The translations under genes and the position numbers were made by a program. Shown in pieces: positions 9,014-31,796 of a stretch of 64,000 bases of DNA. Under the pieces are notes generated by a model that did no database searches, had not been told where the DNA came from, and was given only the letters and a program-made list of their open reading frames with translations. The stretch is from an uncultured Acidobacteriaceae bacterium (lineage in GTDB: Bacteria; Acidobacteriota; Terriglobia; Terriglobales; Acidobacteriaceae): NCBI GenBank assembly GCA_963751225.1, contig CAVVTY010000022.1, positions 1,570 through 65,569 on the forward strand, written 5' to 3'. Within the stretch, counting starts at the first letter, position 1. Each line of letters opens with the position of its first letter.

Positions 9014-9566
9014 ATGTCCACAACCCAGTTGTCGGTCACCGACCGGCCGCAACCCAGTAGGATGTACCGCTGGCTGGTGCTGATCTTTGTCAGCCTGGCC
9101 ATGTTCGGGAACTACTACTTCTACGATGCGCTCAGCCCCATCGCCGACCTGCTGGTGAAGCAGCTTCACTTCACCGACGCAAACATTGGTCTGCTACAGG
9201 CAGCCTACAGTTTTCCCAACATATTTACGGTGGTAATTGGGGGAGTCATCATTGATCGCATCGGGCTGCGGCGCTCGACGTTGATCTACGGGGTACTCTG
9301 TTTTGTGGGCGCGATTATCACGGTGCTCACCAGCCACCTCTGGGTCATGGCAACGGGCCGCCTGGTTTTCGGTATGGGCGCCGAATCGCTCATCGTCGCC
9401 GTGACCACCGCGTTGGCCAAGTGGTTCAAGGGCAAGGAGCTCAGCTTCGCCTTCGGCGTAAACCTGACAGTCTGCCGGATAGGGTCGTTCCTCGCGTTAA
9501 ATTCGCCAAGCTGGGCCAAGGCGGCTTACGTGAATTGGCGCTACCCTTTCCTGATTGGCGTGGGCA
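9014..9566 (+). pseudogene. MFS transporter, N-terminal half only (cut at junction)
   Basis: About six TM segments with MFS motif [11 protein letters not shown]; ends abruptly where typA sequence begins. Confidence 0.7.
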
Positions 9567-14567: not shown

Positions 14568-15055
14568 CCGGGAAGCTCCTGATCGAGAACTTCTTTGGTG
14601 CGTGCTGCGCGCCACGCGGCGAGCCGTTCGTAGAGTGAGGCGTCAGTAGCGGCGAGAATCTCGAGTGCGAGCAGCGCTGCATTGGCCGCGCCGGGCTTGC
14701 CGATTGCCAGTGTGCCGACGGGAACTCCCTTCGGCATCTGCACGATCGAGAGCAGGGAATCGAGGCCATTGAGCTGTGTTGCCACGACAGGCACGCCCAG
14801 CACGGGAACCAGCGTCTTGGATGCGAGCATGCCGGGGAGATGTGCGGCGCCGCCCGCTCCCGCGATGATCACGCGCAGGCCGCGCTCGCGGGCCGTCTCG
14901 GCGTATTTGAAGAGCCAGTCAGGCGTGCGATGCGCGCTGACGATGCGCGCTTCATGAGGAATTTCAAATTCGCGCAGAATCTCCACGGCTGCAGAGAGCA
15001 CTTCGTAGTCGCTCTTGCTGCCCATCACCACGCCCACTAACGGCTGATTGCTCAT
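14564..15055 (-). CDS. purE: N5-carboxyaminoimidazole ribonucleotide mutase
   Basis: [38 protein letters not shown]. Confidence 0.97.
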
Positions 15056-15109: not shown

Positions 15110-15328
15110 TCAGTGCCTGTGCCAGGCTTCCACGGCTATTTCCACCACGGTCAACAACACGCCGAATGCCGCAAGGAACCCCTTGGCGCGCTGCCAGTTC
15201 TGCTCGTGGCGTTCCATGCGGCGTTCCAGATCAGCAATGCGCCCGCCGTTGCCGTCGCCCATCAAGCCGTTCATTTGCGTCTTGAGCACGCTCAGATCGC
15301 TCAGCACCTGTGCTTCGAATTCATTCAT
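15110..15328 (-). CDS. Small coiled-coil + C-terminal TM protein (holin/XhlA-like)
   Basis: 72 aa, GRIADLERRMERHE coil followed by hydrophobic FLAAFGVLLTVVEIAV; last gene of the phage-like cluster. Confidence 0.5.
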   Translation of the reverse strand: MNEFEAQVLSDLSVLKTQMNGLMGDGNGGRIADLERRMERHEQNWQRAKGFLAAFGVLLTVVEIAVEAWHRH

Positions 15329-15367
15329 CAATCGCATCTATGGAACTCCATGGGATTGTTGTTCCTC

Positions 15368-15545
15368 GTTCCCAGGTCTCAGACCACCCCATGGACGAAG
15401 ACCTGTCCATGGGGACCCCGGCATCGAGACCTGGGGCACCCTCATCATTGTCAGGACCCCACTCAATGCGCAAACAGCGCGCATGAATGGGTCCCCCTGA
15501 GAATGAACCGTCCCACGTCTCAAAGGTGAGACGTGGGGCACCCAA
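15368..15545. repeat. REP-like palindromes (cccaggtctc...gagacctggggcaccc; cccacgtctc...gagacgtggggcaccc); relative near 47983-48022
   Basis: Two related stem-loops ending ggggcaccc. Confidence 0.7.
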
Positions 15546-15549
15546 GTCC

Positions 15550-17865
15550 TTACGAGCCGAGCGGTAAATTAAAGAACAGCGCCGCCGAAAACTCGGAATA
15601 GTTGGGCGGCGTCGATCCGTCGTACATCCTTATGTAGAAGCGGTCGCAGGCCGAGCCACGCGTGAAGGTCATCGTGGGCTGAGAGCCGCGCATCACCAGG
15701 TCAGAGTCCTGACCCGGCATGAAGGCGAAGTCGCGCCGTCGAATCTCAAACCCGCCGCCCGGCGGAGCAGTCGCACCCGTGTTGATGGTGACGCTGCTTC
15801 CGCTGAGCGAGGTGACCGTGAGGCCGCTGAGATTGGCCAGGTAAGTGGGCGCAACCGGAGCCGCCAGCCAGGTGTCCGCGGGAACCGAAGTGCTGGTGCG
15901 GATTGCAAGGTCGTCTGCCCAGTCGTTGGCAAACGCGATCAGATATTCGACTAAGTCTGGATAACTTGCCCGATAAGTCAACCCTACTTTGCGCACAATG
16001 ACCTGTGCATCAAGGTTGGTGGAAGGCGCTGTCAGATGTAGCGCGTCGCCCGGCCAGACGTCCGCAGCAAAGCTTATATTTGTGGCTTTGTAAGTGCCGT
16101 TCCAGAGAGCGCTGACACTGGCTGCAGCCTGTTCAAGCGCGAGCGCCGCATTCCGACAATCCTGCGAGCTGCGCGCGGCGGGACTTGTGACAGAGCCGAT
16201 CCACGCGGCCACCGGCGGTAGTCCAGCCTGCGCGAGCTGCTGCTCGCTGGCCGCGTTGATGGCGCGGCCCACCGCTCTGCCCACGGTGCGATAACTTACT
16301 GCGATCTGCTCGCCAACCGCCGGAGCAAAGCCATTGTTGAAAATGAGCGTGCCGGCACTTTCAATGCGGCATTCCGCGGATTGAGCCGCTGATCCAATGC
16401 GTCGCGTGCGCGGGCTTCCGTTTGCCGGGGTGCTGACGACCCATCCAGAACCGAGGTTTGTCAGATTCAGGGCGCGCATGGTTCCCATCAGGTTCATGCT
16501 GCTGGCCGCGACTACCGCGCAGGCGTGCGGCAAGCTGGTAACCGAGCCTTCGTAAAGTGTCACCGGCATTCCGGCAACGCCGTTCACGAACTCCTGCACC
16601 TCGAACTGGAGCTTTGCAGGGCTCGCGTTTCTCTGACCGCCAACGGTCACCGGGCCGTCGTCGCCGAAGGAGCGATAGACCGAAAGCGCGCGCTCGCATT
16701 CGGGACTGTGCACTCTGACGCGCAGAGCATACTGCCTGGCCGGATTCACGGTGTACTTTGTTCCGTTGGGCACGCCCTGCACGATGGGCTGCAATGCAAC
16801 GGTTCCCGTGCCCTGCTGCGACGTCACCTGAAAGCCGGCCGTGCATGCCGACAGCGTTCCGAGCCCGATAAATAATCCTGCGAGAATCCCCGTGCTGCCG
16901 TTGGCGAGAGTGACGCCGGTCGCTTCCAGCAGAAGAGTGCCTCCCATCTCCACCGGATCGAGCCAGCTGAGCAGCGTGTCTCCATCCGTGCCGCTCCCAC
17001 CTTGCATCTGAAGCCCGTCTGCACCCAGCGAAAAGAAGCCGTATCCGCCCGGATTGCCCCAGACGCGCGCATCAATCCCGCCTTCATTGAAAAGCTCGCG
17101 GATGATGCTCGACTGCGAAGAAGGTAGTAAGTATGGGCTGGCGGCTAAGTTGAACTGGGTTGTAACTCCATCGCCCAAGAAGTACTCAGTAACATAGGCG
17201 ACCGGCTCATGCCCACCGCAGACAGTAATGTCGTTGGCAAGAGCGTGCCCGGCAGGAGCGGCAAGTGAGAGATCTGCAAGTGTAAGGCTTCCGTCGGTCT
17301 CGTTGAGCGAATGGACAGTGGCCGGAATTGCCGAAAGCGATAGCGTGCCGTTGATTGCTCGATAAGCGGCACGCGCTTCCGTTGCAACTTCGCCTGCGGT
17401 CGTGCTCCACGACGCTCCTGAGCGCTGCGCGAAGCCGTTGACCGTGGAGTTAAGCGTCAGTGCCTGTGTGGAGAGATTGGTGGCGCCGGTCTTTGTCACC
17501 AGCGATCTTACAAGTGACCCCGCGGTTGAACCCGCAATGCCTTTGCCCGGAGCCATCGCCACCTGATCCAGCAGCAACTCATCGCTGATTGCCTGAACTG
17601 CGATTCGATAACGAGGGCCCTGCATGCCGAGACCCACATATTCAGGCAACGGCGCAGCGGCGATGTAGCCCGTAAAGAAGCAGGTTCCATCGTCGCCAGT
17701 GATGACAATGCCTTGATTGCGGCTCGGTGAAGCCAGGCTTCCATCTGCAGGCAAGCTCAGCCACAGTTGGCACGTGGAGGGCTCATTCAGCGAGCGCTCA
17801 ATTGCTAACGGATGCGCTGCATCGAGTGCCGAAGTGTAGTCTTGACCCTGAATTGTTATTTTCAT
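15550..17865 (-). CDS. Putative tail-tip/baseplate hub-like protein
   Basis: 771 aa beta-rich protein; N-terminal hub-like ERSLNEPSTCQL...FFTGYI; PGDALHL near the C-terminus; located after the tail tube-like gene. Confidence 0.55.
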   Translation of the reverse strand: MKITIQGQDYTSALDAAHPLAIERSLNEPSTCQLWLSLPADGSLASPSRNQGIVITGDDGTCFFTGYIAAAPLPEYVGLGMQGPRYRIAVQAISDELLLDQVAMAPGKGIAGSTAGSLVRSLVTKTGATNLSTQALTLNSTVNGFAQRSGASWSTTAGEVATEARAAYRAINGTLSLSAIPATVHSLNETDGSLTLADLSLAAPAGHALANDITVCGGHEPVAYVTEYFLGDGVTTQFNLAASPYLLPSSQSSIIRELFNEGGIDARVWGNPGGYGFFSLGADGLQMQGGSGTDGDTLLSWLDPVEMGGTLLLEATGVTLANGSTGILAGLFIGLGTLSACTAGFQVTSQQGTGTVALQPIVQGVPNGTKYTVNPARQYALRVRVHSPECERALSVYRSFGDDGPVTVGGQRNASPAKLQFEVQEFVNGVAGMPVTLYEGSVTSLPHACAVVAASSMNLMGTMRALNLTNLGSGWVVSTPANGSPRTRRIGSAAQSAECRIESAGTLIFNNGFAPAVGEQIAVSYRTVGRAVGRAINAASEQQLAQAGLPPVAAWIGSVTSPAARSSQDCRNAALALEQAAASVSALWNGTYKATNISFAADVWPGDALHLTAPSTNLDAQVIVRKVGLTYRASYPDLVEYLIAFANDWADDLAIRTSTSVPADTWLAAPVAPTYLANLSGLTVTSLSGSSVTINTGATAPPGGGFEIRRRDFAFMPGQDSDLVMRGSQPTMTFTRGSACDRFYIRMYDGSTPPNYSEFSAALFFNLPLGS

Positions 17866-17903
17866 TTGTGCTTTCACTCACCTGGGGATCTTTTCCGGGT
17901 TTC

Positions 17904-18880
17904 TTAGATCAGCGCATTGGGCGCGGGAAGAAAGCTTCGATAACAAAGCACGCGCTCGCCATCCAGCGGATCGGTCACCGGAAGCGCCAGGAAGCACGCC
18001 TTGAGCAATGCCTGTGCGAGGCCGCCCTTGTGCTTGCCGTCAAGCGGTTGGACCGACTCCTCTGCGCCTGCCAGGCTCTGCAATCGTGGATAGTGAAAGA
18101 AGATTCTCTCTCCCTGCGCGCCTGCCATGACGAAGAGAGCCGACCATTCCTGATAGAAAGAGCCACCCTCGCGATCGACGAATCCCGTCACTGACTGCAG
18201 TTTGGTTCCCGCCGCAGGAGCGCCTCCCGGTAAAGGCTGCGGCAAGGGTGAGTCCCGTGCCATTCACCTGAGACACCAGCGCGACGTTGAAGGTGATGCG
18301 CCGGATGTAGTCGACGTCATTGAGCGGCTGACGAAGATATGCGCCAGAGATGGGATCGCCCACGAAGCCCGTTTGTCCGGCGTAATCCGTCATCCACGGC
18401 AACCATCGAGCCCGCCACGAACCTGGCGGCGTCGGCAGCAGCGAGCTGGAGCACGCTTGCCGTGGAGCCGGCCTGCAATGCAACGGCGGAAGCAGCCTGC
18501 GCGCCATCGGCGGCGAGCGCAGCGCCGTTCGCGGGAGCCAGCAGGTTCATGTGCTGCGAGCCGGTGGCCAGTGCCATCGTCAGCTTTGTCCAGCTCAGAA
18601 ACTCGAAGCTGACTTGCGCATCGAGTGTCTCGCGCGCTTGTGCCAGAGTCGCGGCCGGTATGCCGGTCATGATCGGCACGGACTTGCTGCCCGTGCTGCG
18701 TGCGAGTTCCTGGATCGCTCCGAGATCGATCCAGGGAGCGGGCGGGGAATCCAGATCGAACGTGCCCTGCTGCGATGGATCGAAGAGCATGGGTGTCTGC
18801 GCCGCGCGATTCACGGGCGCAAAGTAGGCGCGGGCCTGCCGCGTCACGGGCGCGGGAGATGAAAACCAATTCGCCGCCAT
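17904..18880 (-). CDS. Putative tail tube-like protein (split by frameshifts near 18385 and 18240)
   Basis: WIDLGAI...AQVSFEFLSW...MALATG N-terminus and FFHYPRLQ C-terminus in successive frames; position in the cluster. Confidence 0.45.
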
Positions 18881-19365
18881 TATTCCCCCTGCTCCTGGTA
18901 GCTGTAGACGGTTACCTTCGCCGACCTGCTGACGCGATCGCGCTGCGTCAACATCGGCGCAAATCCCGGCTCACTCCAGAAGATCTGCGTCAACAGCGTG
19001 ACTGGCGGCTGCACGGCATAGTTGAGCTTCGGCGCATTGCATGGCTCCAGCATTGCGACCAGTTCCGCGTCCATCGTGCTGAGTGTTCTGCCGCGATCGA
19101 GTCCGCCGAAGTTTTGCGTACCGCACGTCTGGTAGAGGATTTCGCATTCCTGCGCGACGAGGGTCGAAGCAAGATCGGGATCTGTGCCGAGACCAAGCCA
19201 GCGCAGGACGAAAACGTCCGGCGGCAGCTGGTTGAACGGCGCTTCGGCCTCTTCCACCAAGATGCCTGGCCGGAGCGCACCTCGGATCAACACGGTCCGC
19301 TCGGGATTGATCGAAGCCAGGCGCGCGCGGAGCGCCATATAGAACGAATCTTTTGCATTTTGCAT
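18880..19365 (-). CDS. Putative tail terminator/completion protein
   Basis: 161 aa from MQNAKDSF; size and position; stop overlaps the next start. Confidence 0.45.
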   Translation of the reverse strand: MQNAKDSFYMALRARLASINPERTVLIRGALRPGILVEEAEAPFNQLPPDVFVLRWLGLGTDPDLASTLVAQECEILYQTCGTQNFGGLDRGRTLSTMDAELVAMLEPCNAPKLNYAVQPPVTLLTQIFWSEPGFAPMLTQRDRVSRSAKVTVYSYQEQGE

Positions 19366-19507
19366 GTGGACTCCGTTGAGTTGGCAGTTCACAGTTCTCA
19401 GCTCACAGCGCGCAGAATCGTCCTGCCGCTCGGCGGCTTTTTCGGAGCCTGGAAGCGTGAGCCACCAACTGCGAACTAAGAACTGAGAACTGTGACCTGC
19501 GAACTGT

Positions 19508-19943
19508 CTACAATGCCTGCTGCCGTACTTCGCGCAGCAGCAGCCGGTAGAGATATGCCTGTCCAAACGCCTCGTTGGAGGCGATGGATTCAATCAGGTA
19601 GTCCTGTCCGGACACCGTAACTGCCAGCGTCATGGCGAAGAGAGATTGCGCAGATTCAATGTCAAGCGCGCAAATCTGCTGGGCGATGCTGGATGCCGAA
19701 ACGAGAAGTTCCCATTTTGGCGCATCGCCATCCTGCAACGTGGGTCGCAGCTTTCGCATGACAACCGGGCTTACAACGATCTCTGAAAAGGCGGTTGCCG
19801 TCAGGCCGATTTCCGATTGGTTTGTCGGAGTGTTTGTGCCCAGTGACGCGCAGCAGCGCGCTCGTTCCGGCTACGCTGCGCAACAGCGCATCGGCGAGCA
19901 TCTGAGGCGCGCTTCCCTGTTTTCGTGTTGCAGTGTCGCTCAT
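19508..19943 (-). CDS. Putative head closure protein (frameshift near 19840)
   Basis: Two overlapping ORF pieces; C-terminal GQDYLIESI...LYRLLLR resembles stopper proteins; position. Confidence 0.45.
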
Positions 19944-19946
19944 CGC

Positions 19947-20570
19947 TCACCCCAACCTGTTGGCCACGTAGGGTCGAAGCCATTGCTGCACGGTTTCGTC
20001 CACCAGCGAACTCGAGAAATATTGCATCTGCATCGTGTCGATCCTGGTTTTGCTCGCATTCAAGGCGGGCGTCGATTGCGCATTGCGCACGATCTGCGCA
20101 CAGGCGGTCTTCACGTCGTCGCCAATCACCGCCAGGCCGGCCGTGTAAGTCACGGTTACCTCGTTGTACGGCAGTCCCAGCAAGTTCCAGGGCAGCATGA
20201 GTTCACCGCTGCTTGCGTCGAAATCAACCGAGCTGGGGTCGATCGTTGTCCATTGACCGGGTAACGCGAACGCAAGAGAGATGTCAAAGAGCCCGTTGTC
20301 GACGAGCTCTCCGCGCCGCGGTTTTGCGTAGCGGCCCTCGATGCTCACGATGGGAGAGGCCGCGCTCCCCAGTGGAGTCAGCGGAAGATACGTGAGTCGT
20401 ACCGACTGCGAGCCGCTGGTTAGCCGCAGGCGTTCGGTGTATTGCGTCACGTTCAGATCTGGCCGCCTGCAATAGCTGTTGATCAACGCAGTTGCAGCGG
20501 TCACCCAGTCCGTCGATGTGCCATCCGGCAATCCGTAATTTGGAAAATCCGCCGGCTCGAGATATGCCAT
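19947..20570 (-). CDS. Putative head-tail adaptor/connector protein
   Basis: MAYLEP..., AATALINSYCRR, VTVTYTAG, DVKTACAQIV, WLRPY motifs typical of gp6/gp15-like adaptors; directly after the capsid gene. Confidence 0.7.
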   Translation of the reverse strand: MAYLEPADFPNYGLPDGTSTDWVTAATALINSYCRRPDLNVTQYTERLRLTSGSQSVRLTYLPLTPLGSAASPIVSIEGRYAKPRRGELVDNGLFDISLAFALPGQWTTIDPSSVDFDASSGELMLPWNLLGLPYNEVTVTYTAGLAVIGDDVKTACAQIVRNAQSTPALNASKTRIDTMQMQYFSSSLVDETVQQWLRPYVANRLG

Positions 20571-20690
20571 AACGTTCCTTCTGTACGAGTTCTTGGTTCG
20601 CAGTTCTCAGTTCTAAGTTCACGGTGTTCTGCGCTGCAACGCGTCTTTCGACTGTGAACTATGAACTGAGAACTTGGAACTGGCTGTTGT

Positions 20691-21659
20691 CTACCGATCC
20701 ACGAGTACCTGGTAATGCGCGTAGTTGGCCCCCTTGACCACAATGGCGCCGAACTTCACTGCGACATACTGCTGCGCGAGCGACCCAGGCAGGCCAAGCT
20801 GGAAGATCCGCGGAGTGGGATCGCCGAGCCAGTGATACTCGACCAGGTCCTCGGTTACGATGTAGGCCGGGAGCACCGCGGAGCCCGAACCCGGCGTGCC
20901 CGTGTAGCCAATGCTCCAGTCAGGAACCAGGGGCAGATCGCCCGCCTGCGTCGAGAGCATCTTCACGCTCAGCCCGCCGGTGATCTTGTCGGAGTTGAGC
21001 ACCACGTTGAACTCGGTCTTCATCTCGCGATCGATCAGGTCAAGCAAGACAGGATTGGCATAGATGGCCGTGGGGCGCACGTGGTAGCCATTGCTCGCAA
21101 CCATCTGCGCGACAGCCGACTTGATTCCATCGACAATCGATGCCGAGGTGCCGATGGTGGTGGTGTTTCCGCCGGCCACGATCTGAGAGATCGCGCCCAT
21201 GTACTGCGTCGTTGTGGGCGAGCTGAGGCTTGTGTCGTTGCCATTCCAGAGCGCCACGTCGTGGGTCACCATGACGCCGCTCACCGTGTCGACAAGGTCC
21301 TTCGCCTGCAGATAGGCAAACTGCTGTTGCTGATTGCCCAGTTCGATGTCGAACAGGTTGTAGTTGATCTGCGAGACGATTGCCTTCAGCGGCACACTGC
21401 GCTCCACGCGGGTTGGGTTCACAACCGGGGCCACGATGCTGCGCGGATTCACGAAGCCGGCCGTGCCGGGATTCGGCAGCGCTGTCTCCTCAAAGAATCG
21501 CGACGGATGACCGGTTGCGGGCACCTGCTTGATGCGCTGCCCGAACGGGCTTGATCGACGGCAGATGTCGAAAATCTCTGTCTGATACAGCGGAACCTCG
21601 ACAGCTCCTGGCCCGATAAAGTCAGCAGCCGCGTGAATATCTGTAAAGGATGCGTTCAT
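20691..21659 (-). CDS. Putative major capsid protein (HK97-fold expected)
   Basis: 322 aa after portal-protease-scaffold; DVALWNG, PTAIYANP motifs; strong RBS (ggggagaag). Confidence 0.75.
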   Translation of the reverse strand: MNASFTDIHAAADFIGPGAVEVPLYQTEIFDICRRSSPFGQRIKQVPATGHPSRFFEETALPNPGTAGFVNPRSIVAPVVNPTRVERSVPLKAIVSQINYNLFDIELGNQQQQFAYLQAKDLVDTVSGVMVTHDVALWNGNDTSLSSPTTTQYMGAISQIVAGGNTTTIGTSASIVDGIKSAVAQMVASNGYHVRPTAIYANPVLLDLIDREMKTEFNVVLNSDKITGGLSVKMLSTQAGDLPLVPDWSIGYTGTPGSGSAVLPAYIVTEDLVEYHWLGDPTPRIFQLGLPGSLAQQYVAVKFGAIVVKGANYAHYQVLVDR

Positions 21660-21846
21660 ATGTGCTTCTCCCCTCCATGGGACGATGTGAGCTGCCAGCT
21701 ACTAGCTACTAGCTTTTAGCTTTGTTCAAGGCTTGTCAGGCGAGCGTTGACTTACACGCAAGGATTGCGTGAGTCGATACCCGATGACTCGTTGTCTGGA
21801 TGGCGCCTTTAGCTAGAAGCTGGAAGCCAATAGCTAGGAGCTGTCT

Positions 21847-22245
21847 TTACGCAATTGCCCCCGCGCGCATCAGCTGGCTCTTGACCGCGATGCGTTGTTC
21901 GAGGCTGAGACCGGCGAGCGCCGCGTCGAGCTTGCGCAGGTCTACCGGACCTTCGCCGATGCCGTGCTTGGCGAGCATCTCGGTGGTCGATGCGGGCACA
22001 GTCCGCCGCAGCGGATTCAGCGGTGATTGCGCTTGTGCTGCTTTCAACTCCGCCAACTCGCGCTCCGCAGCGGCGAGCTTTTCGCAGAGCTCGGTCTCAC
22101 GGCGACCCTGATCGATGGTTGCCGAAATCTTCTCCACTTCGCCGGAAAGCGCCGTCTGCCGTTCTTCGATCAGGCTCAGAGTCCTTTCCAGCAGAGTTGC
22201 GGCGGCCTCAAGCCGCTCCGCGATTTTCCTGTCTTCGTGTTCCAT
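21847..22245 (-). CDS. Putative capsid scaffolding protein
   Basis: 132 aa charged coiled coil between protease and capsid; RBS gaaagga. Confidence 0.6.
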   Translation of the reverse strand: MEHEDRKIAERLEAAATLLERTLSLIEERQTALSGEVEKISATIDQGRRETELCEKLAAAERELAELKAAQAQSPLNPLRRTVPASTTEMLAKHGIGEGPVDLRKLDAALAGLSLEQRIAVKSQLMRAGAIA

Positions 22246-22300
22246 GCCATTCCTTTCGTGTTTTTGCCATCGATGTCGAACGCGACTCGCGATGACCCGC

Positions 22301-22332
22301 AAAGAAAAGAGGCTCCAAAAATGCGGAGCCTC
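22301..22332 (-). terminator. Intrinsic terminator between protease and scaffold genes
   Basis: Minus strand gaggctcc-gcattttt-ggagcctc followed by ttttcttt. Confidence 0.7.
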
Positions 22333-22372
22333 ATCTGCTGATCTGACGACTTGCTTTTGCCCTGCTGTATTT

Positions 22373-22900
22373 CTAACTCGCCATCCTGAAACTGGTTAAG
22401 CGATACGCCGCCTTTTCCCGCAGCAGAATCGCGGCACCGGTGAAGGTGACCCGCGTCAGCTTCCACAGGTCGGCTCGCATGTCTTCCACGCGCGCGTCGG
22501 CCAGTTCGTAACTCATGCCGAGCGAATCAGGCTCCTGTGCCGCGATGGCCTCGGCCACCTCTGGAAAATCCCGTGCGTAGAGATAGCCCCGCACCATCAA
22601 CCTGTTTCCAACCAGGCTGGCTTCGGTCAACAGGCCGATCTTGCGCCGCGCGTCGTGCCCGTCCCATCCCGGACGATAGTCAACCGCCATCCCAAGAAGC
22701 GAAGGCAGTGCTTTTTCCGCCGCCTCGTGCATCAGGATCACCCGATGCCCGCGCGCGCCGGCCGGCGCTTTGTCGCTTGCGGTGTTGACCACCGTCAACA
22801 CTCCCTCAAACCCCACCCGGTTGGGGTGCCCTTCCACGTGAGGAATCCTCACCGCCATCGCTTCCAGTCGCATGTAACTCTCCGCAATCTCTTGGTTCAC
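22373..22900 (-). CDS. Putative prohead maturation protease
   Basis: HDARRKIG, LMVRGYLY, LGMSYE, FTGAAIL pattern of phage prohead serine proteases; overlaps the portal stop. Confidence 0.7.
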   Translation of the reverse strand: MNQEIAESYMRLEAMAVRIPHVEGHPNRVGFEGVLTVVNTASDKAPAGARGHRVILMHEAAEKALPSLLGMAVDYRPGWDGHDARRKIGLLTEASLVGNRLMVRGYLYARDFPEVAEAIAAQEPDSLGMSYELADARVEDMRADLWKLTRVTFTGAAILLREKAAYRLTSFRMAS

Positions 22901-24177
22901 TTCGCCGCGACGCCTGCTTCAGCAGACAACTGGTCTGCGCCTTCGTGCGTGAGCGGCCCCAGCCCGCGCATGGCGCGCACTTCATTCACGGTCAACACAC
23001 CGGCCTGGAGCAGTTGCACCTGCACCGCCAGCTCCGTTTGCTCGTCGCGCGCGTTCAGATCGTTAAAGACAAACTCGAACTCGCGCCAGCCGATGCACTT
23101 CGCGAAGAGATCGCGCGTGAAGTGCCCTGCCAGCAACTGCGCAAGCGGTAGAATCGCCCCGCGAAATGCTTCGTCGGCAAGCTCCACTGCGGTTGAGCGG
23201 TTCACGTCGCCTTCCAGTCCGAGCAGCATCGGCGGCAATCCAAATGCATTGGCGACCATGCGGATCAGAAATGCCTGCCAGGCCAGCCGCAGATCCGCAT
23301 CCGTCCCCTGCGCGAATCGCAGCACCTCGGGCTTCTGTTCGGTCGAGAGCAGCGGCACGCGGCCCGTGCCCTCAATCTCGTCCTGCCACCAGCGGATCAG
23401 GCGATCGTGCTGGGCAGGCGTTGCCTCGTTGAGCCACAGTGCATATTGCGCCACCGAGTTCGCCGCCAGCTTGCCCGCGAACCGGTGCGCGCTCAGGAAT
23501 TGATTGACGGTTTCGAATGCAACCTCAAGCGGACCCAGCCCGAAGGGCGTAAAGCTCCGCGGATTCATGCGCACATACATTAACTGGTTGTCGCAGAGTT
23601 CCACGGCGCTGGACTCAAGCTGCCCGGTCGCGGCCTGCGCATAGCGCGGCGAGTCGGGTTGACCATCCCAGCGGGGATGAATGCGGATGGATGCGCCATC
23701 GACGGCCCACAGCATCGCGGGACGATCCGCGTCACCGGTCAATTCCATCTCCATCGCGCCGTATCCGCCGGTCAGGGCATCCTCGATGACCTGTTCGATC
23801 AGCGTGCGAAAACTGTCCGTGGCATTTGGCTCTTCCAACACACGCCGCAGGGCGCGCAGCTTGTTCCCCGTATCGGTCACATCGCATGGCCGGACGCCAC
23901 GTCGCACCCGCACCTGCCAGTCCATCGCGGCAATGCGGTCTTTGATCAGGTTGATGGCGCGCCGAACCACCGGCGTCTCTGCAAACCGGCGGAGATTCGT
24001 CGGCGTCGGCTTGGGCATGATCTGCCCTGGAAAGTGAGCAGGGCTCAGAACGGACGGCAGTGCGAGCGTCTTTCGTTCGGTATCGGCCGATATTTCCACC
24101 CCTTCGCTTCGTTTGGAATGTCCCGCCCGGCGGCCTGTCTGCCGCCAGATCTCCCGCAATTGGTCTCTTACCTTCAC
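22897..24177 (-). CDS. Phage portal protein
   Basis: PVVRRAINLIKDRIAAMDW, DALTGGYG, GLGPLE, VANAFGLPPMLLG, GVLTVNEVRAMRGLGP. Confidence 0.93.
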   Translation of the reverse strand: MKVRDQLREIWRQTGRRAGHSKRSEGVEISADTERKTLALPSVLSPAHFPGQIMPKPTPTNLRRFAETPVVRRAINLIKDRIAAMDWQVRVRRGVRPCDVTDTGNKLRALRRVLEEPNATDSFRTLIEQVIEDALTGGYGAMEMELTGDADRPAMLWAVDGASIRIHPRWDGQPDSPRYAQAATGQLESSAVELCDNQLMYVRMNPRSFTPFGLGPLEVAFETVNQFLSAHRFAGKLAANSVAQYALWLNEATPAQHDRLIRWWQDEIEGTGRVPLLSTEQKPEVLRFAQGTDADLRLAWQAFLIRMVANAFGLPPMLLGLEGDVNRSTAVELADEAFRGAILPLAQLLAGHFTRDLFAKCIGWREFEFVFNDLNARDEQTELAVQVQLLQAGVLTVNEVRAMRGLGPLTHEGADQLSAEAGVAAK

Positions 24178-24191
24178 GCGCACCTTCCTCT

Positions 24192-24237
24192 GCAAAAACA
24201 AAAGCGCAGCCTGACCAGGCTGCGCTTTTGTTTTTGC
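24192..24237. terminator. Perfect 21-bp inverted repeat, bidirectional terminator-like, immediately upstream of the portal RBS
   Basis: gcaaaaacaaaagcgcagcct-gacc-aggctgcgcttttgtttttgc. Confidence 0.8.
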
Positions 24238-24387
24238 TCTTAGCTCTCAGCTTTCTGCTGTTAGCCGCTTGCTACCAATCGATCAAACTCACTTACAAAA
24301 TCGATCCTACCGCATTCACCGGAAACTATCTGCAAACTCCATGCAGATTTTTTAACAGTCCAGAGCTGGAAAGCTGAAAGCTGTTTC

Positions 24388-25237
24388 TCACACCCTCAAC
24401 TCACGCCGCGCAGTATCCGCTACGCGTTCCATGTCCGCAGTGGTTAGCACGCGAATCTGGTGTTCCTCCATTGTCTCTACCCCGAACCGATACATCTCCA
24501 GCCTCTCCGGTTCTTCCTCTGTTGCGCCCAGCTTTGCAGCCGGCTCGATTATGGCAGTCAACTCGAGTGCAGCCTTCTCCACGCGCTCCACACCGGCGCG
24601 CAGACTTGCCGAAGTAGAACGAGAGCACTTTGGCCATCTCCACGCCGGGCTCCAGGCTTACCGCGTGAAACATGCGAATGACCCCGTTGGGCCTGTACCC
24701 CACGTCGATGCGCAGCGGATCCCCGGGCCGCGTGTACTCCGATGCCGCAATGCGCTTGCGCAACAGATCCCAGACGCCCGCGCGCTCAAACTCCGTGCGC
24801 ATCCTTGCTTGAATGGCAGCCCGGCCGCTCAATCGCGCTGTGCGTTCCCGACGTGGAGGATCGACGTAGATCCGCATCAGCTCTTCCATTCCCGCGGGGA
24901 CACTTTCCGCCAGGTACGCCTTGGGCGGAGTTATCTGGACGTTCAGCGAAAGCGATTCATCAAGCAACTTCATCAGTCTGTCATCCGGCTGCTGCTCGAG
25001 CCGCCGTCGCAACTCGCTCTCCATTCCTTCGAGAAGCGCGGTGTCCGCATCCGGATCAAGGCAGCGAACGCGGCGCCAGTCGTGCGTGAACTGGACTCGA
25101 GCGTGAGCCGTTTCTGCACCCGCCCCGGCCGGCTCGCGCAGGATCACGCCGATGTGAACATACTCGTTCCGCACCGCGTCCGGCACGTACCGCAACAGTT
25201 GAAACTCGCATGCAAGCCGCCCGTTTTCATCCTTCAT
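24388..25237 (-). CDS. DUF3037 domain protein (frameshift near 24615)
   Basis: N-terminal FQLLRYVPDAVRNEYVHIGVIL signature; follows the HipA-like kinase. Confidence 0.8.
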
Positions 25238-25256
25238 CTCCGGCGCTGCCGCCCTC

Positions 25257-26129
25257 CTACATCACTCTTCCGGCGATGTTAGTACTCCACCGCGCGTCCT
25301 TCCAGTACTCTTCCGTGTCTTGCGTTCCGTTCATGCCCCATTTGGGAAAGGGCTTGCGGTCCGACTTCCCGAAAGCTTCAATCAGTTCCCGAATCCGGCT
25401 GCGACGCGCCAGCAGCTTCTCCACCAGCGCCTCCATTTCGCTCAGGTCGCCACCGTACCACTCCGGGGGAACCTCGTTCGCCGCCGCCCACACCGTCTCG
25501 GCAGGCATTGCCTCCAAGCGCGACAACCAGGGCCCAAATGACTCCCATCCAGTAATCGACCCGTAGACATCGTTGCGGTAGTACACGCCGCGCAACGGCG
25601 CATCTTCAAACTTCCAGTCGCCGGCGTGAAAGCAGTACCCGTAATCGATGAAGACCGCGCGATAGCGACGCTCGCGCCCCTTGCGCGCAAACACAGCCTG
25701 GCGTCCATTCGCATTGCCGGTCCACTTGTCCAGCGCGAGGATGCCGGCAAACTCGTCAAGATTCTTCACCTCGGCCAGTTGCTCTTCCGGCAGGAAGTCC
25801 ACCACGTGCCCCGGCATGAGGCCGCCCACAAACCTCGATCCGAACTGAAGGCCATGCTTGCATCGCACGCGCGTGCGTCCCAGATCCATCTCGAGTTCGG
25901 GAGTGTTCTCCACCAGCCAACTCGAGACTTCGATCAGTTCCACCTCCGGAGCCGTGAGGCCGGCCGCCAGCGCAAGCTTCGACGCCAGGAACTCGTTGGC
26001 CAGAACGCGCATGTGCTGCGGGTTGTTCTGGAATTTGACGACGTAAGCATGGCCGTCCGCGCCCAGCATCAACTGGCCCTGTGCACCGCCCCGCATGCGC
26101 CGGATATGCTGCACCGCCAGAACCGCCAA
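25257..26129 (-). CDS. HipA-like (HipA_2) Ser/Thr kinase-fold protein
   Basis: MRGGAQ glycine loop, YVVKF, LANEFLA, DKWTGN, FIDYGYCF. Confidence 0.85.
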   Translation of the reverse strand: MAVLAVQHIRRMRGGAQGQLMLGADGHAYVVKFQNNPQHMRVLANEFLASKLALAAGLTAPEVELIEVSSWLVENTPELEMDLGRTRVRCKHGLQFGSRFVGGLMPGHVVDFLPEEQLAEVKNLDEFAGILALDKWTGNANGRQAVFARKGRERRYRAVFIDYGYCFHAGDWKFEDAPLRGVYYRNDVYGSITGWESFGPWLSRLEAMPAETVWAAANEVPPEWYGGDLSEMEALVEKLLARRSRIRELIEAFGKSDRKPFPKWGMNGTQDTEEYWKDARWSTNIAGRVM

Positions 26130-26281
26130 GCCCGTGTCCCCGATCTGTGTGAATTCCTGTGTAGATTCTAAGCTGCAGAGACAGCTTTTTGCTCCTGACT
26201 CATAGGTATCAGCTCCATCCTGCCCATTGAGGCTTTTCCCATCGTGCCAAGAGCTGGAGACCAGAAGCCAGAAGCTGGAAG

Positions 26282-27823
26282 CTAGCGGCTAGAAGCTGTC
26301 TTTCTCAGGCTCCCGCTCTCCACCAGCTCTGCCCTCGCCGCCAGTCCGATCGCCGTCGCCATCACGCAATCGTCATGCGTGCCCGCACGCGCACCGCTGC
26401 TTCCATCCGGAAGGCGCACAAAGCTCCTGCATTCGCTCAGCAGCCGCCTGCTCATGAAACGGTCAGGATGGTCCACCAGGGCCGCACCCAACCGGCCCAG
26501 CACGGCGGGTCTGCTCACGGAAGTCGTCAGCCAGCCGGCCTGGCCGCAATGCCTGTAGATCCGCGTGTACTGACAAACCGTTTCTGCAAGTGCCAGCACT
26601 CCGCTGCCGTGATTGTTGCGTTCCACAACGAGCCATGCGTTGTTGTACTCGGCGGCCAGCGCCGTGACCACCCGGGCAAGTTCCAGCCCGCCCACATGCC
26701 CGGCAAACTCTGCGCACTGCATGCCGGTTTCCAGGTCCAGCACCTCGGCGGCCGAGTAGTCGCCTTCGCTGCCGCCGCCAGCCGGGTCCACAGCAACCAC
26801 GTAGTCCCTGCTGGTTTGCGGCGGGAGCCATATCCGGAGCTCTCCATTGCGTCGCTGTTCCGGCGCATCCGGCGCAGCCACCAGACGCTCCTCGATCGCC
26901 GCGAGTTCAAAGACGGAATCCCCGCTCGCAATGAAGCAGCTCGCAGCGTCTTCGGCATACTCCTGCCGCGCCAGCCCTCGAAAGTCCGCGCGCACCTGCC
27001 GCCGAAATCCGATCTGGCTCAGATCCAGACCGCAGCGTGCCATCAATTCGCGCTCTTCGTCGCTCAGGCTTGACCTCTTCACGGCCTTTGCACGATAGCG
27101 CTGCTCCATCCACCACGGAAAGAAATGCCGCACCATGCCGGTCTCATCGGCCTTCTGCCACTCCTCGTGAAAGCATCCTCCAACGCCGTCCGGCGTAGAC
27201 TCGAGGATGACCTCTCCGCCCGGCGCCAATGCCGCGCGGAGACCGGCCAGGATCTCCGCCGGGTACCCGGGCCAGCGCGCCAGCTCTGAGCAATGCAGAT
27301 TCTGCACAGTCAATCCGCGTCCTGCATTCTTCTCTCCCGCTGAAACCACGCGGTATTGCGAGTCCAGCTCCGGAAACACAATCTGCCGAGCATTCGCTCT
27401 TGAGGTCTTCAGGAACCCTCGCTGCAGACTCTCCGGCAGCCACTCCACGAACCGGTGCACGATCCGGAAGATCTCCTCGGCTGACTCCTGCGTGTGTGCT
27501 ACCTGCAGCGTCAGCGTGCCGGGACGGGTGATGGTCTTCAGAAAGAATCGCGCGGCAGCCCAGGTCGTCAGTCCCATCTGCCTCGCCTTGAGTACAATGT
27601 TCTTCTCGCCGCGCTGCGCCTCGAAGGCCCTCTGCACTTCGTTGGCTTGCAGAGGCTTCGTCGATCCGGCGCGCGTCCTCACCTTCAGCAGTCGTGTGGA
27701 GAGCATCATGCACACGGAATCTCCGTGCAAGCTGGTCGGACGCACGTCCAGAATTCTCCCGTATCGGATCAATTCGTTTTCATCCGGAATCTCGGGAAGA
27801 ACAGACTTCTGTCTTGTGGCCAT
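26282..27823 (-). CDS. Terminase large subunit
   Basis: Walker A VLKARQMGLT, Walker B LHCSE, coupling motif LESTP, nuclease VAVDPAGG and HDDCVMA. Confidence 0.93.
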   Translation of the reverse strand: MATRQKSVLPEIPDENELIRYGRILDVRPTSLHGDSVCMMLSTRLLKVRTRAGSTKPLQANEVQRAFEAQRGEKNIVLKARQMGLTTWAAARFFLKTITRPGTLTLQVAHTQESAEEIFRIVHRFVEWLPESLQRGFLKTSRANARQIVFPELDSQYRVVSAGEKNAGRGLTVQNLHCSELARWPGYPAEILAGLRAALAPGGEVILESTPDGVGGCFHEEWQKADETGMVRHFFPWWMEQRYRAKAVKRSSLSDEERELMARCGLDLSQIGFRRQVRADFRGLARQEYAEDAASCFIASGDSVFELAAIEERLVAAPDAPEQRRNGELRIWLPPQTSRDYVVAVDPAGGGSEGDYSAAEVLDLETGMQCAEFAGHVGGLELARVVTALAAEYNNAWLVVERNNHGSGVLALAETVCQYTRIYRHCGQAGWLTTSVSRPAVLGRLGAALVDHPDRFMSRRLLSECRSFVRLPDGSSGARAGTHDDCVMATAIGLAARAELVESGSLRKTASSR

Positions 27824-27852
27824 GGCCGCTGCCTCTGCCGATCTGCCAGCCA

Positions 27853-30800
27853 CTACTGGATGACGCGCACGTTGTAGACGCTCGCAGCCGGAGTGCCCCC
27901 TGCCGCAAGATTTGTGCAGACCTTCACCGTCGCGATGCCGGTCGCGCTCACATACGCCTTCCAGTCAAACGCATCGCCTGGATAAGTAGCGGGCGTTGCC
28001 ACAACTGCCATGCTATTTGTCACTCCGGCAATGCTCACGGTTCCGCTGGCACACTGTCCTGCAGCGAGTGCCGAGCTGCCGATGCTGCTGGTTGTTCCTC
28101 GCAACGCTGAAGAAGAGCAAGCACTAAGGGTCCCTGCCGCGTCAATGCAAACCACCCCCGCCGTGCCAACGCCTAAAATGTTCGGCATCGTTACGGACCA
28201 GCCACCACCATTACGTAAAACCAAATTGTTTTGACCGCATCCATTTGCGCCGATATACAAATGGTCGTCGGTATATAGGTCTACCAGCGAACAGGAAAGA
28301 TGGGACGAGCTAAAACTTCCAAGAGCCGCCCCGTTCGGAATGGTGAAGCCCGCCGCACTCACAGCCCCGGTGACATTTAACCCGTTCGAGCCGTCAGGAG
28401 TCACGCCGGGAAAGAGCGCGTCAACATAGTGCTTTGTCGCTGCTTGGAGGTTTGAAGTAGGGTCCGAGGGGAGGACAACAGGATTCGTAAATAAGTTTGA
28501 TCCCGTCCATGTATTTGTCCCACTAAGGGAGACACCTGCACTCCATGTCGGAGTCGCACCCTGCCCTGCCGAGGTAAGGTATTTCCCTGTAATTCCTGCG
28601 TCACCGTTCAAGTAGATCGGGGAGGTCGCGTCACCCAAATGCAACGGACCAGTTGATAGCGTGTTCGGATTGACATAAAGGTCTGTTGGGTCAGGATAGT
28701 ATTCAATCGTGATGACTACCGTTTGACCGGCAGGCATGGTCGCGTCCGTGAAGTAACTGACGTGCCTTCCTTGTAGATTGCCGCCGTTGAACTCTCCAGC
28801 GTCGAGGCTAAGCAGCATAGACCTTCCATTGTGAAGGTCTACCGTTTGACCCCCGACAAGGATGGGGGCAATGTCCTGCCCCTGTGAGGAGCCATTGAAG
28901 AAATAGAAAGCCCCAATGCCGGTTAGGCCGATATTGCTCGAAACGTAGACGCTGACCGACTTGTAAATTCCGCTAGGAAGATTGAACCCAGCCCCGCCAG
29001 TCGCGCCGGTATTGGAAAGTAGAGGTTGAACGATGGTCACTTGTTTGGTTTCGCTATAAATCTTCCCGTTCCACCCTATCTTTCCGTGGTGGTAATGCAT
29101 GTCGTACCAGCCAACGTTGGCGCCAAGAAGCACGTCCTCCATGTCTAACTCGGACGTATCCGCAAGATAGAGTGGTTGGTTTGTGTGCTGCGCGTTGTAG
29201 GAATAGCCTTTCAAGCTGTTGTTGATAGAGTTGCCGTGGATAGAGAGAGACGCACCCGCAGCCATGGTCGAACTTGACCAGGACAGATTCTCAAAGTGCC
29301 ACCCACGGTTCTGCGACTCCAGTTCTATCAATGGACCCGCGCAGTCGTCGCAAATAAGATTGCGTGCGATGACATCGTGTGAGCCCCACCCCGAGAGCAA
29401 CCCACCCGCGACTTTGGCGTGGATGTTGTCAATCACAACACCTTCTGAATTGTCGATGCCGAGCAGCAGATGATTAACGCGGTGTCCCACAATGTCATGG
29501 ATGTAAACATTGCGCGTCACCGTCGTCTGTATGCCAACGTCCGCTGTGCCAACGTAATCGAACCCGCAACCGGAGATTTCGACATTTTCCGCGATGCTGG
29601 AGAGAGTGTTTAGTGTGCTTGTATGGTTTGTCGGAGCCGCCACCGCCTCCGGCAGAGGCTTCGCAAGCGTGACGACGTTTCCAGCGATACCGATGATTCT
29701 GTTGAACTGCGCTAGATAATGCTGACCGGGGTCGTATGGGTCTTGACCCAGCCACATAAAGACCTCTTGTCCAACGGACAAGCCGGTCACAGAGGAAGGC
29801 GTAAATTGCGTCTGACCAGCCGTGAAAGCGCCAGCAATGGGAAACGACAAAGCCGCCTGAGAGTCAACTACGATCGTGTCCCAGCCGGAAGAGTCCCAGT
29901 TTGGATTCGTGTTTTGTACCGTGTGATCCGCCACCAAAACAGCGTTGGCACTCTGACAGACCAGCTTCATTGAGCCATGAATTTCCAACTCTTCTGAGAG
30001 ATGATAGCGCCCGTTCGGGACGTAGCACGTCATGCTGCCAGAGGCTTGCGCGTCATTGATGCAGGCCTGAAAAGCAGTAAAGTTGCTGACAGAGTTTGCC
30101 GAGGAGTCGTTGCCCACCGCTCCATAGGCTTTAACAGAAACCTGTGCCCCGCCAAGATTCGCCAGTGTCGTAACCGCCGTTCCCGCACCGGAGAAAGCGA
30201 CCGGCCCAGTAAGGGTTCCGCCAGTTAATGGCATTCCCCCCAAATTCGCAATTGCGGCTCCCGCAGTTGCTGCACCAGTGCCGCCCGCGGTTACGGGCAC
30301 GGCACTGATGCCGGTGATCGCTGTGCCGCTGCCAGAGTAATATGCGATCTCGCCGGAGTTGCCGCTGTTGACGGTGCCGCTGCTGCAGGGTAAGCCCGTG
30401 TTGCTCATGTAGCCGGAGCCGTCAATCTGCAGACAGTTGTGTCCGTTGGTCGCGGAAAGGCCGGGAAGTGTGATGGAAGCAGGGCCGGAGAGGCTCGCAA
30501 CGACTTTGCCGTTGCTCTGGAGTGACAGCGGTCCGCTCAATGTGCCGCCGGTTAACGGCAATGATTGCGCGAAGGCCGCGTCGACATAGTGCTTATCGGC
30601 AGCCTGCAAGGCCAGCGATGGATCCCCGTTGAGATAGAGCGGTCCGGTCAATGCCCCCCCCGTCGACGTCAAAGCGCCCTGGTTGATCGATTGGATCGCC
30701 TGATCGACATACGCTTTGCTCACCGCCTGCACCGCCTGGACCGCCGGCATCACCTGTGCGCGCACCTGCGCGATGCGCGCCTGCTCTCCTGGAGGAACCA

Positions 30801-31152
30801 CCCAGTACTCCGTGCTCGTTGTGCCGTCGCTCATGTGATACACGGCCGTGTAGTAGAGGCCTGCGGGCGTCGATCCCAGATTGGGGGCCAGGTTTACGCT
30901 GACGCTTCCGTTCTGCCCGATCGTGACCGACGTGTGGCCCGCCGTGATGGCGTGATTGTCCGCTGTCGTGAATGCCGGCCAGCTCAGCTGGAGGCTTCCC
31001 GACCCGGGTGCACCATTCGCCAGGTAAACCGTCCCATTGACCGACGTTGTGTCCACCGCTTGAGCACAGGCGATCCAGGATGACGCCATCGCAGTCAGGC
31101 CTATTCCAATCCACTTTGCGGCGCGAACCCACAATTCCCACTGGAGCTTCAT
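27853..31152 (-). CDS. Tailspike/fibre-like protein with pectate-lyase-like beta-helix and an N-terminal signal-peptide-like segment
   Basis: 1099 aa; repeated KxYVD and PLTGGTLxGP fibre motifs; VKAYGAVGND...AFQACIN...YVPNGRY beta-helix cap. Confidence 0.7.
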   Translation of the reverse strand: MKLQWELWVRAAKWIGIGLTAMASSWIACAQAVDTTSVNGTVYLANGAPGSGSLQLSWPAFTTADNHAITAGHTSVTIGQNGSVSVNLAPNLGSTPAGLYYTAVYHMSDGTTSTEYWVVPPGEQARIAQVRAQVMPAVQAVQAVSKAYVDQAIQSINQGALTSTGGALTGPLYLNGDPSLALQAADKHYVDAAFAQSLPLTGGTLSGPLSLQSNGKVVASLSGPASITLPGLSATNGHNCLQIDGSGYMSNTGLPCSSGTVNSGNSGEIAYYSGSGTAITGISAVPVTAGGTGAATAGAAIANLGGMPLTGGTLTGPVAFSGAGTAVTTLANLGGAQVSVKAYGAVGNDSSANSVSNFTAFQACINDAQASGSMTCYVPNGRYHLSEELEIHGSMKLVCQSANAVLVADHTVQNTNPNWDSSGWDTIVVDSQAALSFPIAGAFTAGQTQFTPSSVTGLSVGQEVFMWLGQDPYDPGQHYLAQFNRIIGIAGNVVTLAKPLPEAVAAPTNHTSTLNTLSSIAENVEISGCGFDYVGTADVGIQTTVTRNVYIHDIVGHRVNHLLLGIDNSEGVVIDNIHAKVAGGLLSGWGSHDVIARNLICDDCAGPLIELESQNRGWHFENLSWSSSTMAAGASLSIHGNSINNSLKGYSYNAQHTNQPLYLADTSELDMEDVLLGANVGWYDMHYHHGKIGWNGKIYSETKQVTIVQPLLSNTGATGGAGFNLPSGIYKSVSVYVSSNIGLTGIGAFYFFNGSSQGQDIAPILVGGQTVDLHNGRSMLLSLDAGEFNGGNLQGRHVSYFTDATMPAGQTVVITIEYYPDPTDLYVNPNTLSTGPLHLGDATSPIYLNGDAGITGKYLTSAGQGATPTWSAGVSLSGTNTWTGSNLFTNPVVLPSDPTSNLQAATKHYVDALFPGVTPDGSNGLNVTGAVSAAGFTIPNGAALGSFSSSHLSCSLVDLYTDDHLYIGANGCGQNNLVLRNGGGWSVTMPNILGVGTAGVVCIDAAGTLSACSSSALRGTTSSIGSSALAAGQCASGTVSIAGVTNSMAVVATPATYPGDAFDWKAYVSATGIATVKVCTNLAAGGTPAASVYNVRVIQ

Positions 31153-31298
31153 GTTTGTCTCATCCTTTTGTTTACGATGTCCCTTTGGACATGCATCAAG
31201 CTCGCGCGGATCCGTTCCGTCCCCTTCGCACGGGCTTCAGTTCTTTCCCACTTTTCATCTCTTTTGACGCGGGCAACTTCGAGGGTTGGTAGGGACCG

Positions 31299-31709
31299 CT
31301 AAGAATCTTCCTCATCCTCCGATTCCGGAGTGCCGTTCGTCTCCGCATCCGCCATCTCCGGACGCCAGGGTGGCTCTGCCGCCAGTTCCAGAGCCATGCT
31401 CCGGCGTCCGCATAGACTCTCTTCATTATTCGTTGAATCGCCAGCCACATCGAACAGAAATCGGATTCCCTTCAATTCCTCTTCGGCGAAGCCGTCCAAC
31501 GCGGACTCCACGATCGAATCGCTTCGCTTTGTCAGTTCATTGGCCGCGGACTTCCCCAGCTTTGCCTTTCCAACAGCCTTCTTGCGACTTCTGTTTCTTG
31601 GATTCACTTGTTTGCCCTGGACTTGGAGTATTTTTCTACTTGATCCGGTTGCGGTTCGCACAGGCGTACAAAACAAACGGGAGAGCTTCACGCGCTCTCC
31701 CCGGTTCAC
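31299..31709 (-). CDS. Hypothetical protein, candidate terminase small subunit
   Basis: ~136 aa, basic N-terminus, helical core, acidic tail; first gene of the cluster; assignment rests on position and size only. Confidence 0.4.
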   Translation of the reverse strand: MNRGERVKLSRLFCTPVRTATGSSRKILQVQGKQVNPRNRSRKKAVGKAKLGKSAANELTKRSDSIVESALDGFAEEELKGIRFLFDVAGDSTNNEESLCGRRSMALELAAEPPWRPEMADAETNGTPESEDEEDS

Positions 31710-31796
31710 AAATCAGTCTGGATGTTTTCAGGATAGCTGGATCACTGGAAATTATCTGCAAATCCGCTCCGCACCCGGATGCACTACCATAACCGG

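Follow-up and report, generated by a model that had tools for sequence, protein, structure and literature searches.

Gene transfer agents (GTAs) of the RcGTA type, as found in Alphaproteobacteria, are encoded by about 15 kb of head, neck and tail genes that include neither a replication gene nor an integrase, are inherited in the manner of host genes and are kept under purifying selection, with regulators that may be encoded at other chromosomal sites. The present work concerns a block of phage-like genes, here called the module, which occupies positions 15110 to 31709 of the window, the 64,000-nucleotide stretch of contig CAVVTY010000022.1 (assembly GCA_963751225.1, from an uncultured Acidobacteriaceae bacterium) that was analysed. 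The module resembles RcGTA in being a phage-derived chromosomal block of roughly 15 kb (16.6 kb here) with vertical inheritance, purifying selection, no integrase, attachment (att) repeat or replication gene, and regulators that possibly lie elsewhere. In phage origin, gene content, inheritance and selection it is GTA-like at sequence level, but it is no homologue of RcGTA. Its capsid is SU10_MCP-like and unrelated to the PF05065-type capsid, no tape-measure or distal tail gene separates its tube from its hub, it adds an export leader on the spike and a kinase-DUF3037 gene pair, and no conserved endolysin was found. The module is almost certainly the domesticated head and tail block of a tailed phage and, judging from its genes, very probably produces particles. 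The reading favoured here, to which a probability of about 0.47 is attached, is that these would be GTA-like particles which package DNA in trans, have a stub tail, rely on uptake by the recipient and are costly to phages.

Other described systems share parts of this design. Capsid-forming phage-inducible chromosomal islands (cf-PICIs) and other satellites have their own head and packaging genes and an incomplete tail and lysis apparatus, and may both depend on phages and be in conflict with them. The module differs from them in having no integrase or replication gene, in being non-mobile and in keeping tube, hub and spike, and, in contrast to cf-PICIs, capsid interference would here run from the phage to the host element. 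Three uncultured siphophages from the viral collection IMG/VR (L319-L321) have a homologous hub (E 1e-96 to 1e-113 by profile) together with a weakly homologous terminator and a holB-like gene, but they keep genes at the chaperone and tape-measure positions, have capsids of other families and, in L319, an endolysin. Unlike an intact temperate prophage, the module has no integrase, replication gene, tape measure or patchy spread, and unlike a tailocin or contractile injection system it has a head and a large terminase (TerL) and no sheath gene.

The locus has probably been met before under other names. Acidobacterial elements termed Cluster 153 were treated as prophages (PMC5900883) and Terriglobales elements termed group (ii) as proviruses (PMC11924767), and neither text, in the parts available, uses the terms "GTA" or "gene transfer" with this meaning. 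Terriglobus sp. TAA 43 and Granulicella sp. WH15 are among the carriers given there (PMC5900883, PMC11924767), and proteins P0086 and P0082 of these two strains are the module capsid. From such carrier names, rather than from coordinates, the module is probably both Cluster 153 and group (ii); Table 1 of this literature (PMC5900883/PMC11924767) gives a single portal for Terracidiphilus gabretensis. A search made largely of papers outside subscription returned no GTA or domesticated reading of the locus and no capsid decoys directed against it.

Distribution, inheritance and loss

The capsid is present in 257 of 382 Acidobacteriaceae genomes from an order-wide draw, in 183 of 300 genomes and 93 of 116 genera in a sample of the family, and in 31 of 36 genomes within the genus. 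Three unpublished genomes (G196, G062 and G081) are counted in the 183, and two of these three in the 257; no other result given here depends on them. The named carriers also include Acidobacterium capsulatum. No capsid was found in the order's other family (0/24 and 0/18) or, with a single-protein query, in 364 genomes from other families of the phylum, nor does it match any of 50,697 isolated phage records. A single match is found in almost every carrier, and two to seven in a few.

Among 30 carriers with good assemblies, drawn from 29 genera, 29 keep the order TerL, kinase, DUF3037, portal, protease, scaffold, capsid, adaptor, closure, terminator, tube and hub, with one of these truncated at a contig end; the exception is G343, where the module is rearranged. 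The downstream flank is purE in 17 of the 30, sucB in 20 and one or the other in 25, such that the linkage to purEK noted in the first-pass annotation is real and not universal. None of the sequence-level findings that this annotation had named as grounds for giving up its view (patchy spread with variable insertion sites, best hits in complete temperate phages, relaxed selection) was obtained. A recurring rearrangement in one lineage (L129-L130, L266, L268, L275) has moved the spike-to-portal segment behind the tube, and L266 has an additional small gene between protease and scaffold.

A tree of nine module genes was compared with a host tree of rpoB-rpoC-rplAJL, both made with FastTree. The two have 16 of 27 splits in common, where shuffling gives at most 3 and rpoB and rpoC share 13, and their patristic distances correlate with r 0.934, bearing out the congruence with the species tree that had been anticipated. 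Pairwise ratios of nonsynonymous to synonymous substitution rates (dN/dS), taken over non-independent pairs from 80 loci close to the window and leaving out the spike and the small terminase-like (TerS-like) gene, have medians that range from 0.07 to 0.19 across 13 module genes, compared with 0.127 for purE and purK and 0.062 for typA. These values are well below 1, again as anticipated, and indicate purifying selection, with terminase, portal and capsid being the best-conserved module genes.

Genomes without the capsid record how the module is lost. TerL is present in all 16 carriers tested and is also gone in 38 of 40 capsid-less genomes. Seven capsid-less genomes from outside Terracidiphilus were inspected around a kinase or activator that survives, and each of them contains deletion remnants between the usual flanks, consisting of the kinase-DUF3037 pair alone in two, the stretch from kinase to portal with pieces of the hub in one, and regulators with end genes in four. 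Since these seven were chosen for a survivor, they show the mode and not the frequency of loss. Repeated independent integration, considered as another source of the distribution, is ruled out by the remnants at the same locus. In G025 an intact TerL lies 1.37 Mb from the remaining module, and because it has been kept intact at that distance module genes can work in trans.

Could the module nevertheless belong to an ordinary or cryptic prophage family that has repeatedly integrated near purE? VirSorter and geNomad do call the block a prophage or provirus, 26 of 30 capsid matches in the viral collection are this very block, and three of its genes are frameshifted in the assembly. The single copy, the congruent trees, a dN/dS like that of purEK and the lack of integrase and att repeat all speak against such a family, as do the internal deletion remnants, rather than empty sites, of capsid-less genomes and the fact that rpoC and other host genes are frameshifted too. 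No integrase or replication gene occurs among the cluster-linked gene families scanned from 30 loci, no direct repeat links the block ends among the 20 largest repeat families listed, and there is no tRNA in the window. A prophage family, being refuted at the level of sequence, is left with a very slight probability. The first-pass view that the module is host-maintained and not a decaying prophage therefore holds on prevalence, copy number, synteny, tree congruence, dN/dS and deletion remnants, and many of the "acidobacterial proviruses" of soil viromes are, by the same 26 of 30 matches, this host locus.

A tail without a tape measure

The siphophage-type tail tube (positions 17904 to 18880, on the minus strand as is every gene of the module) is spread over three frames in the window and is one open reading frame (ORF) of about 325 amino acids in relatives. 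The baseplate hub (15550 to 17877), which has a lectin-like insertion, comes directly after it. Both labels, given earlier without a structural search, are confirmed by fold with structures modelled for the intact orthologues of genome G007: the tube model (pLDDT, the predicted local distance difference test score, of 83) is matched by Foldseek to tail tubes at E 2.6e-9, and the hub model (pLDDT 88) to Mu gp44, the T5 tip and VgrG. The gap between tube and hub is less than 400 bp in 24 of 29 genomes; four larger gaps hold no convincing same-strand gene and the fifth is that of the rearranged genome. In the three uncultured phages with a homologous hub the tape-measure position is taken by a gene of 1130-1415 amino acids, which is called a tape measure by size and position, with no named PHROG match. 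Searches for an unlinked tape measure give weak negatives, since alignment A4, which includes these three phage genes, matched none of 31 host genomes in a search without a positive control, and PF10145 was found in 0 of 4 hosts with the tape measure of G948 itself missed as well. The missing tape measure had gone unremarked in the first-pass annotation.

The tail spike or fibre (27853 to 31152; phrog_2234, 3e-9; HylP-like fibre repeats, E 2e-6) consists of a signal-peptide-like leader, a conserved anchor domain of about 150 amino acids, fibre repeats and a variable C-terminal part, and ranges from 622 to 3049 amino acids in relatives. The leader, called by a hydropathy heuristic and not by SignalP, is a run of basic, hydrophobic and small residues just ahead of the conserved domain in 27 of 29 spikes, compared with 0-5 of 29-30 for each of nine other module proteins. 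The C-terminal domains are variable and carbohydrate-active; Atlas matches of the anchor domain score under 0.9 and are leads at most. In 6 of the 30 genomes a secreted beta-helix/polysaccharide-deacetylase gene is found between spike and TerL (for instance L149:10634-12892 and L135:6941-9181).

Such a spike invites a non-genetic role for the module, as a surface adhesin or polysaccharide-degrading structure, as a means of storing or releasing DNA for biofilm, or in the killing of neighbours. The export leader with its variable carbohydrate-active domains, the secreted gene inserted in six genomes and the lack of a tape measure would all suit a role of this kind. The genes that are conserved best, however, are terminase, portal and capsid, while tailocins and contractile systems do without heads and the block, with its head and TerL, is without a sheath gene, so that a non-genetic role is judged improbable.

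The kinase-DUF3037 pair and phage-borne capsids

In all 30 genomes a pair of adjacent genes sits between TerL and portal. The first encodes a HipA-like kinase (25257 to 26129; HipA_2 PF20613, 1.4e-10; PADLOC PDC-M66A, 4.8e-9) and the second an antitoxin-like DUF3037 protein (24391 to 25237; PF11236, 6.8e-15; PDC-M66B, 4.3e-7), which has one frameshift in the assembly. Pairs of the PDC-M66, DS-6 and HipAD type are reported as proven anti-phage defences in which the kinase is the toxin (PMC12548924, PMC13092281). The module's putative toxin-antitoxin pair is like them in having a HipA-like kinase adjoining DUF3037, but it is fixed inside a vertically inherited virion operon. DUF1829 of DS-6B has no match in the window gene, which is frameshifted. 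The kinase is found at E <1e-50 in 15 of 40 capsid-less genomes. In one deep clade (9 of the 30 genomes; L157:17496-17960 and its orthologues) a gene for a dual-specificity phosphatase, possibly the counterpart of the kinase, separates the TerS-like gene from the spike.

Conflict with phages is also suggested by capsid copies that phages carry. The four capsid loci of the viral collection that are not pieces of the module are lone capsid genes (L287:10001-10969, L288, L289 and L290:1495-2388), which lie among early or metabolic genes in two unrelated phage lineages. L287-L289 represent a 214-kb phage with terminase-, portal-, head- and baseplate-like genes of its own, and L290, a siphophage of 89 kb, encodes TerL, portal, protease, capsid, tape measure and integrase itself; its form of the capsid copy is also present on three other contigs. 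Outside residues 59-83 the phage copies reach 79-80% identity with host capsids, for which the host-host median is 78%. The loop of residues ~59-84, which we take from the HK97 motif pattern to be at the E-loop position, is altered in both: L290 has a 22-residue deletion there and L287 retains 12-21% identity, although distant capsid homologues keep 41-73% in the same loop. Between L287 and L288 the ratio of nonsynonymous to synonymous polymorphism (pN/pS) outside the loop is 0.13, indicative of purifying selection, and nonsynonymous changes number 9 in 52 sites within the loop and 9 in 665 elsewhere. In an unrooted tree the phage copies group with G343 and G231 (93/89); an outgroup places them in a basal polytomy instead, and the approximately unbiased (AU) test does not reject host monophyly (p 0.14). 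As read from these two phage lineages, the copies are likely to be decoys, acting as a dominant-negative poison of capsid assembly.

Lone copies of the protease-like gene likewise occur among phage early genes (L290:5496-6179, L425:7956-8450, L426:7965-8447 and, as a fragment, L427:7431-7583). The full-length ones keep the His and Ser motifs, there is no clear nesting of the phage proteases among the host ones, and that of L424 may be its own head protease.

The module may then be mainly an anti-phage device, with the phage DNA of an infected cell cut and locked in the module's own small heads, or with a phage's tail and lysis borrowed in the manner of a satellite, and with any transfer incidental. 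In a related form the domesticated head and stub tail would be a weapon triggered by infection, which chops up and confines phage DNA or carries host DNA away from dying cells, and whose assembly phages poison with stolen, loop-less capsids; if true, both the defence and the counter-defence would belong to new classes. A defence-type pair in the same place in every genome fits these ideas, as do the two phage lineages that keep the capsid fold yet destroy one loop, the lone protease-like copies in further phages, and the lack of a tape measure, chaperones, endolysin and replication, all of them parts that a helper phage could supply. Yet the kinase pair outlives the structural genes alone, as in G301 and G340, where it is found by itself at the ancestral locus before purE (L428:9856-11728 and L439:10111-11972), and because of this survival a defence role of the pair need not involve the particle. 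Moreover, the receptor-binding spike and the hub are under selection and would be superfluous for pure sequestration, and slow, host-like evolution at a fixed core locus is, as general knowledge has it, atypical of defence genes. Either form is considered less likely than the favoured reading, though not by far, and likelier than a non-genetic role.

How the particle may work

Under the favoured reading, of a GTA-like particle with packaging in trans, an activator with sigma-70 region 4, restrained by a divergent Xre repressor, would turn the operon on in some cells. TerL would fill heads by a headful route with chromosomal DNA, which is proposed because the locus has no replication of its own. 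A stub tail would then be built from the adaptor, closure and terminator proteins, a hub trimer and one or a few rings of tube protein, and the exported spike would join the particle, or bind it at the cell surface, after lysis by an unlinked host enzyme or by an infecting phage. Release of the DNA at the surface or in the periplasm, proposed because there is no tape measure, would be followed by uptake through ComEC, the presence of which in 5 of 5 genomes is weak evidence since ComEC is widespread. The same motor would also cut and mis-package phage DNA, and since it would harm phages in this way they would gain from a loop-damaged copy of the capsid, which would join the host shell without the loop that links capsomers.

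A number of observations weigh against this scheme. There is no direct sign of particles, of packaged DNA or of transfer. About one third of the family is without the capsid and has lost the block, and 2 of the 17 strongly supported module splits contradict the host tree. The tail, with neither a tape measure nor a distal tail protein, may fail to deliver DNA. No conserved endolysin was found (GH24 in 2 of 5 genomes, GH108 in 0 of 5), a weak result in that the GH108 search had no control that gave a match. The activator is missing from 1 of 16 capsid-bearing genomes and is present in 25 of 40 capsid-less ones, and because it persists in the latter it is not dedicated to the module. Finally, the direction in which the capsid was captured is not statistically proven (AU p 0.14).

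The Acidobacteriaceae are among the most abundant bacteria of soil and peat, and few routes of gene exchange are known in them. A GTA-like system of independent origin, carried by two thirds of their genomes, would mean a new origin for phage domestication, and one that is present in cultured species. A siphophage-type tail with an exported spike and no tape measure would be a new virion design, and the loop-damaged phage capsids would offer a ready-made genetic inhibitor as well as a first hint that phages have been selected to block such a particle.

Head, packaging and end genes

The gene order from TerS-like to holin-like and the shared orientation reported in the first-pass annotation are borne out by the ORF list, as is the distance of 54 bp between the last module gene and the ATG of the host gene purE (14564 to 15055; PF00731). 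Its labels for spike, TerL, kinase, DUF3037, portal and adaptor are supported by family matches and those for capsid, tube and hub also stand; TerS, closure and holin are labels of position, protease and scaffold add presumed motifs to position, and the terminator has weak matches.

TerL (26282 to 27853; phrog_2, 1.6e-24) keeps ATPase and nuclease motifs, which presumably have these roles and are conserved across the 30 genomes; its best matches in isolated phages are just 27-31% identical. The TerS-like gene (31299 to 31709) is fast evolving and without Pfam or PHROG match, has weak similarity (27% identity, E 4e-4) to the gene in the same place in G007, and is detected with its own profile in 21 of 30 genomes. 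The portal (22897 to 24201) matches PF04860 at 5.5e-53. It is followed by the prohead protease-like gene (22373 to 22900), named from its position and from conserved His and Ser motifs whose roles we take to be those of a protease, with a marginal PHROG match, and by the scaffold-like gene (21847 to 22302), named from position and motifs that we take to be typical and present in all 30 genomes.

The major capsid protein (20691 to 21659; 322 amino acids) is SU10_MCP-related and matches capsid clusters in the ESM Atlas at 0.99-1.00. SU10_MCP is matched by 12 of 36 aligned capsid homologues and PF05065, weakly, by one of the 36, whereas the window capsid itself has no Pfam match; PDB sequence searches with capsid profiles gave nothing useful. 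Its identity to the capsids of 29 relatives is 72-94%.

Beyond the capsid are the head-tail adaptor (19947 to 20570; phrog_442, 6.5e-17), a closure or stopper-like gene labelled by position (19508 to 19943), which has one frameshift here and is a single ORF of ~145 amino acids in relatives, and a tail terminator-like gene (18880 to 19377), whose own profile weakly matches the gene at the terminator position in phages L319 and L321 (E 3e-4 and 3e-3). The block ends with a holin-like gene (15110 to 15337), so called from its position, that encodes 75 amino acids with a coiled coil and a hydrophobic tail, has no family match, is found in 23 of 30 genomes and has a dN/dS of 0.10.

Regulators

Beside the block lie a divergent Xre-type repressor-like gene in 18 of the 30 genomes, a Zn-finger gene in 23 and the activator in 23. 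The C-terminus of the repressor-like protein gives weak LexA/S24 hints (E 0.009-0.12) and resembles a degenerate S24 domain. In the source genome this trio is detached from the structural block and found on contig C18 (L261:5039-6986), so that the earlier statement that there is no repressor is true within the window but not genome-wide. A pair of integrase and transposase genes (L261:1337-3399), presumably IS91-like from its appearance, is 1.6 kb from the detached regulators, and in G948 the Zn-finger gene lies ~3.6 kb from that genome's own integrase.

Assembly errors and spacer repeats

The assembly is 65% complete and seems to contain indel errors at high frequency. The module genes that are frameshifted in the window, DUF3037, closure and tube, are single ORFs in relatives, and frameshifts also affect the host genes rpoC (contig C7), typA, asparaginase, a GH31 gene and purK; the host-gene zones in the window are at 9014-11131, 13394-14615, 31779-32766 and 34355-36431. 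Because core host genes are equally frameshifted, those of the module are most likely assembly indels, and pseudogenisation of the window copy was ruled out on the same ground. No homopolymer cause was found at the zones checked.

The spacers of the block hold repeats of the same type as the host backbone, as had been claimed, though they are enriched in the block, where 3 and 3 of the 50 and 14 genome-wide matches of two heptamers fall. These heptamer-based repeats lie at window positions 19378-19511, 20587-20694, 21690-21848 and 26252-26303, and two of them form long inverted repeats.

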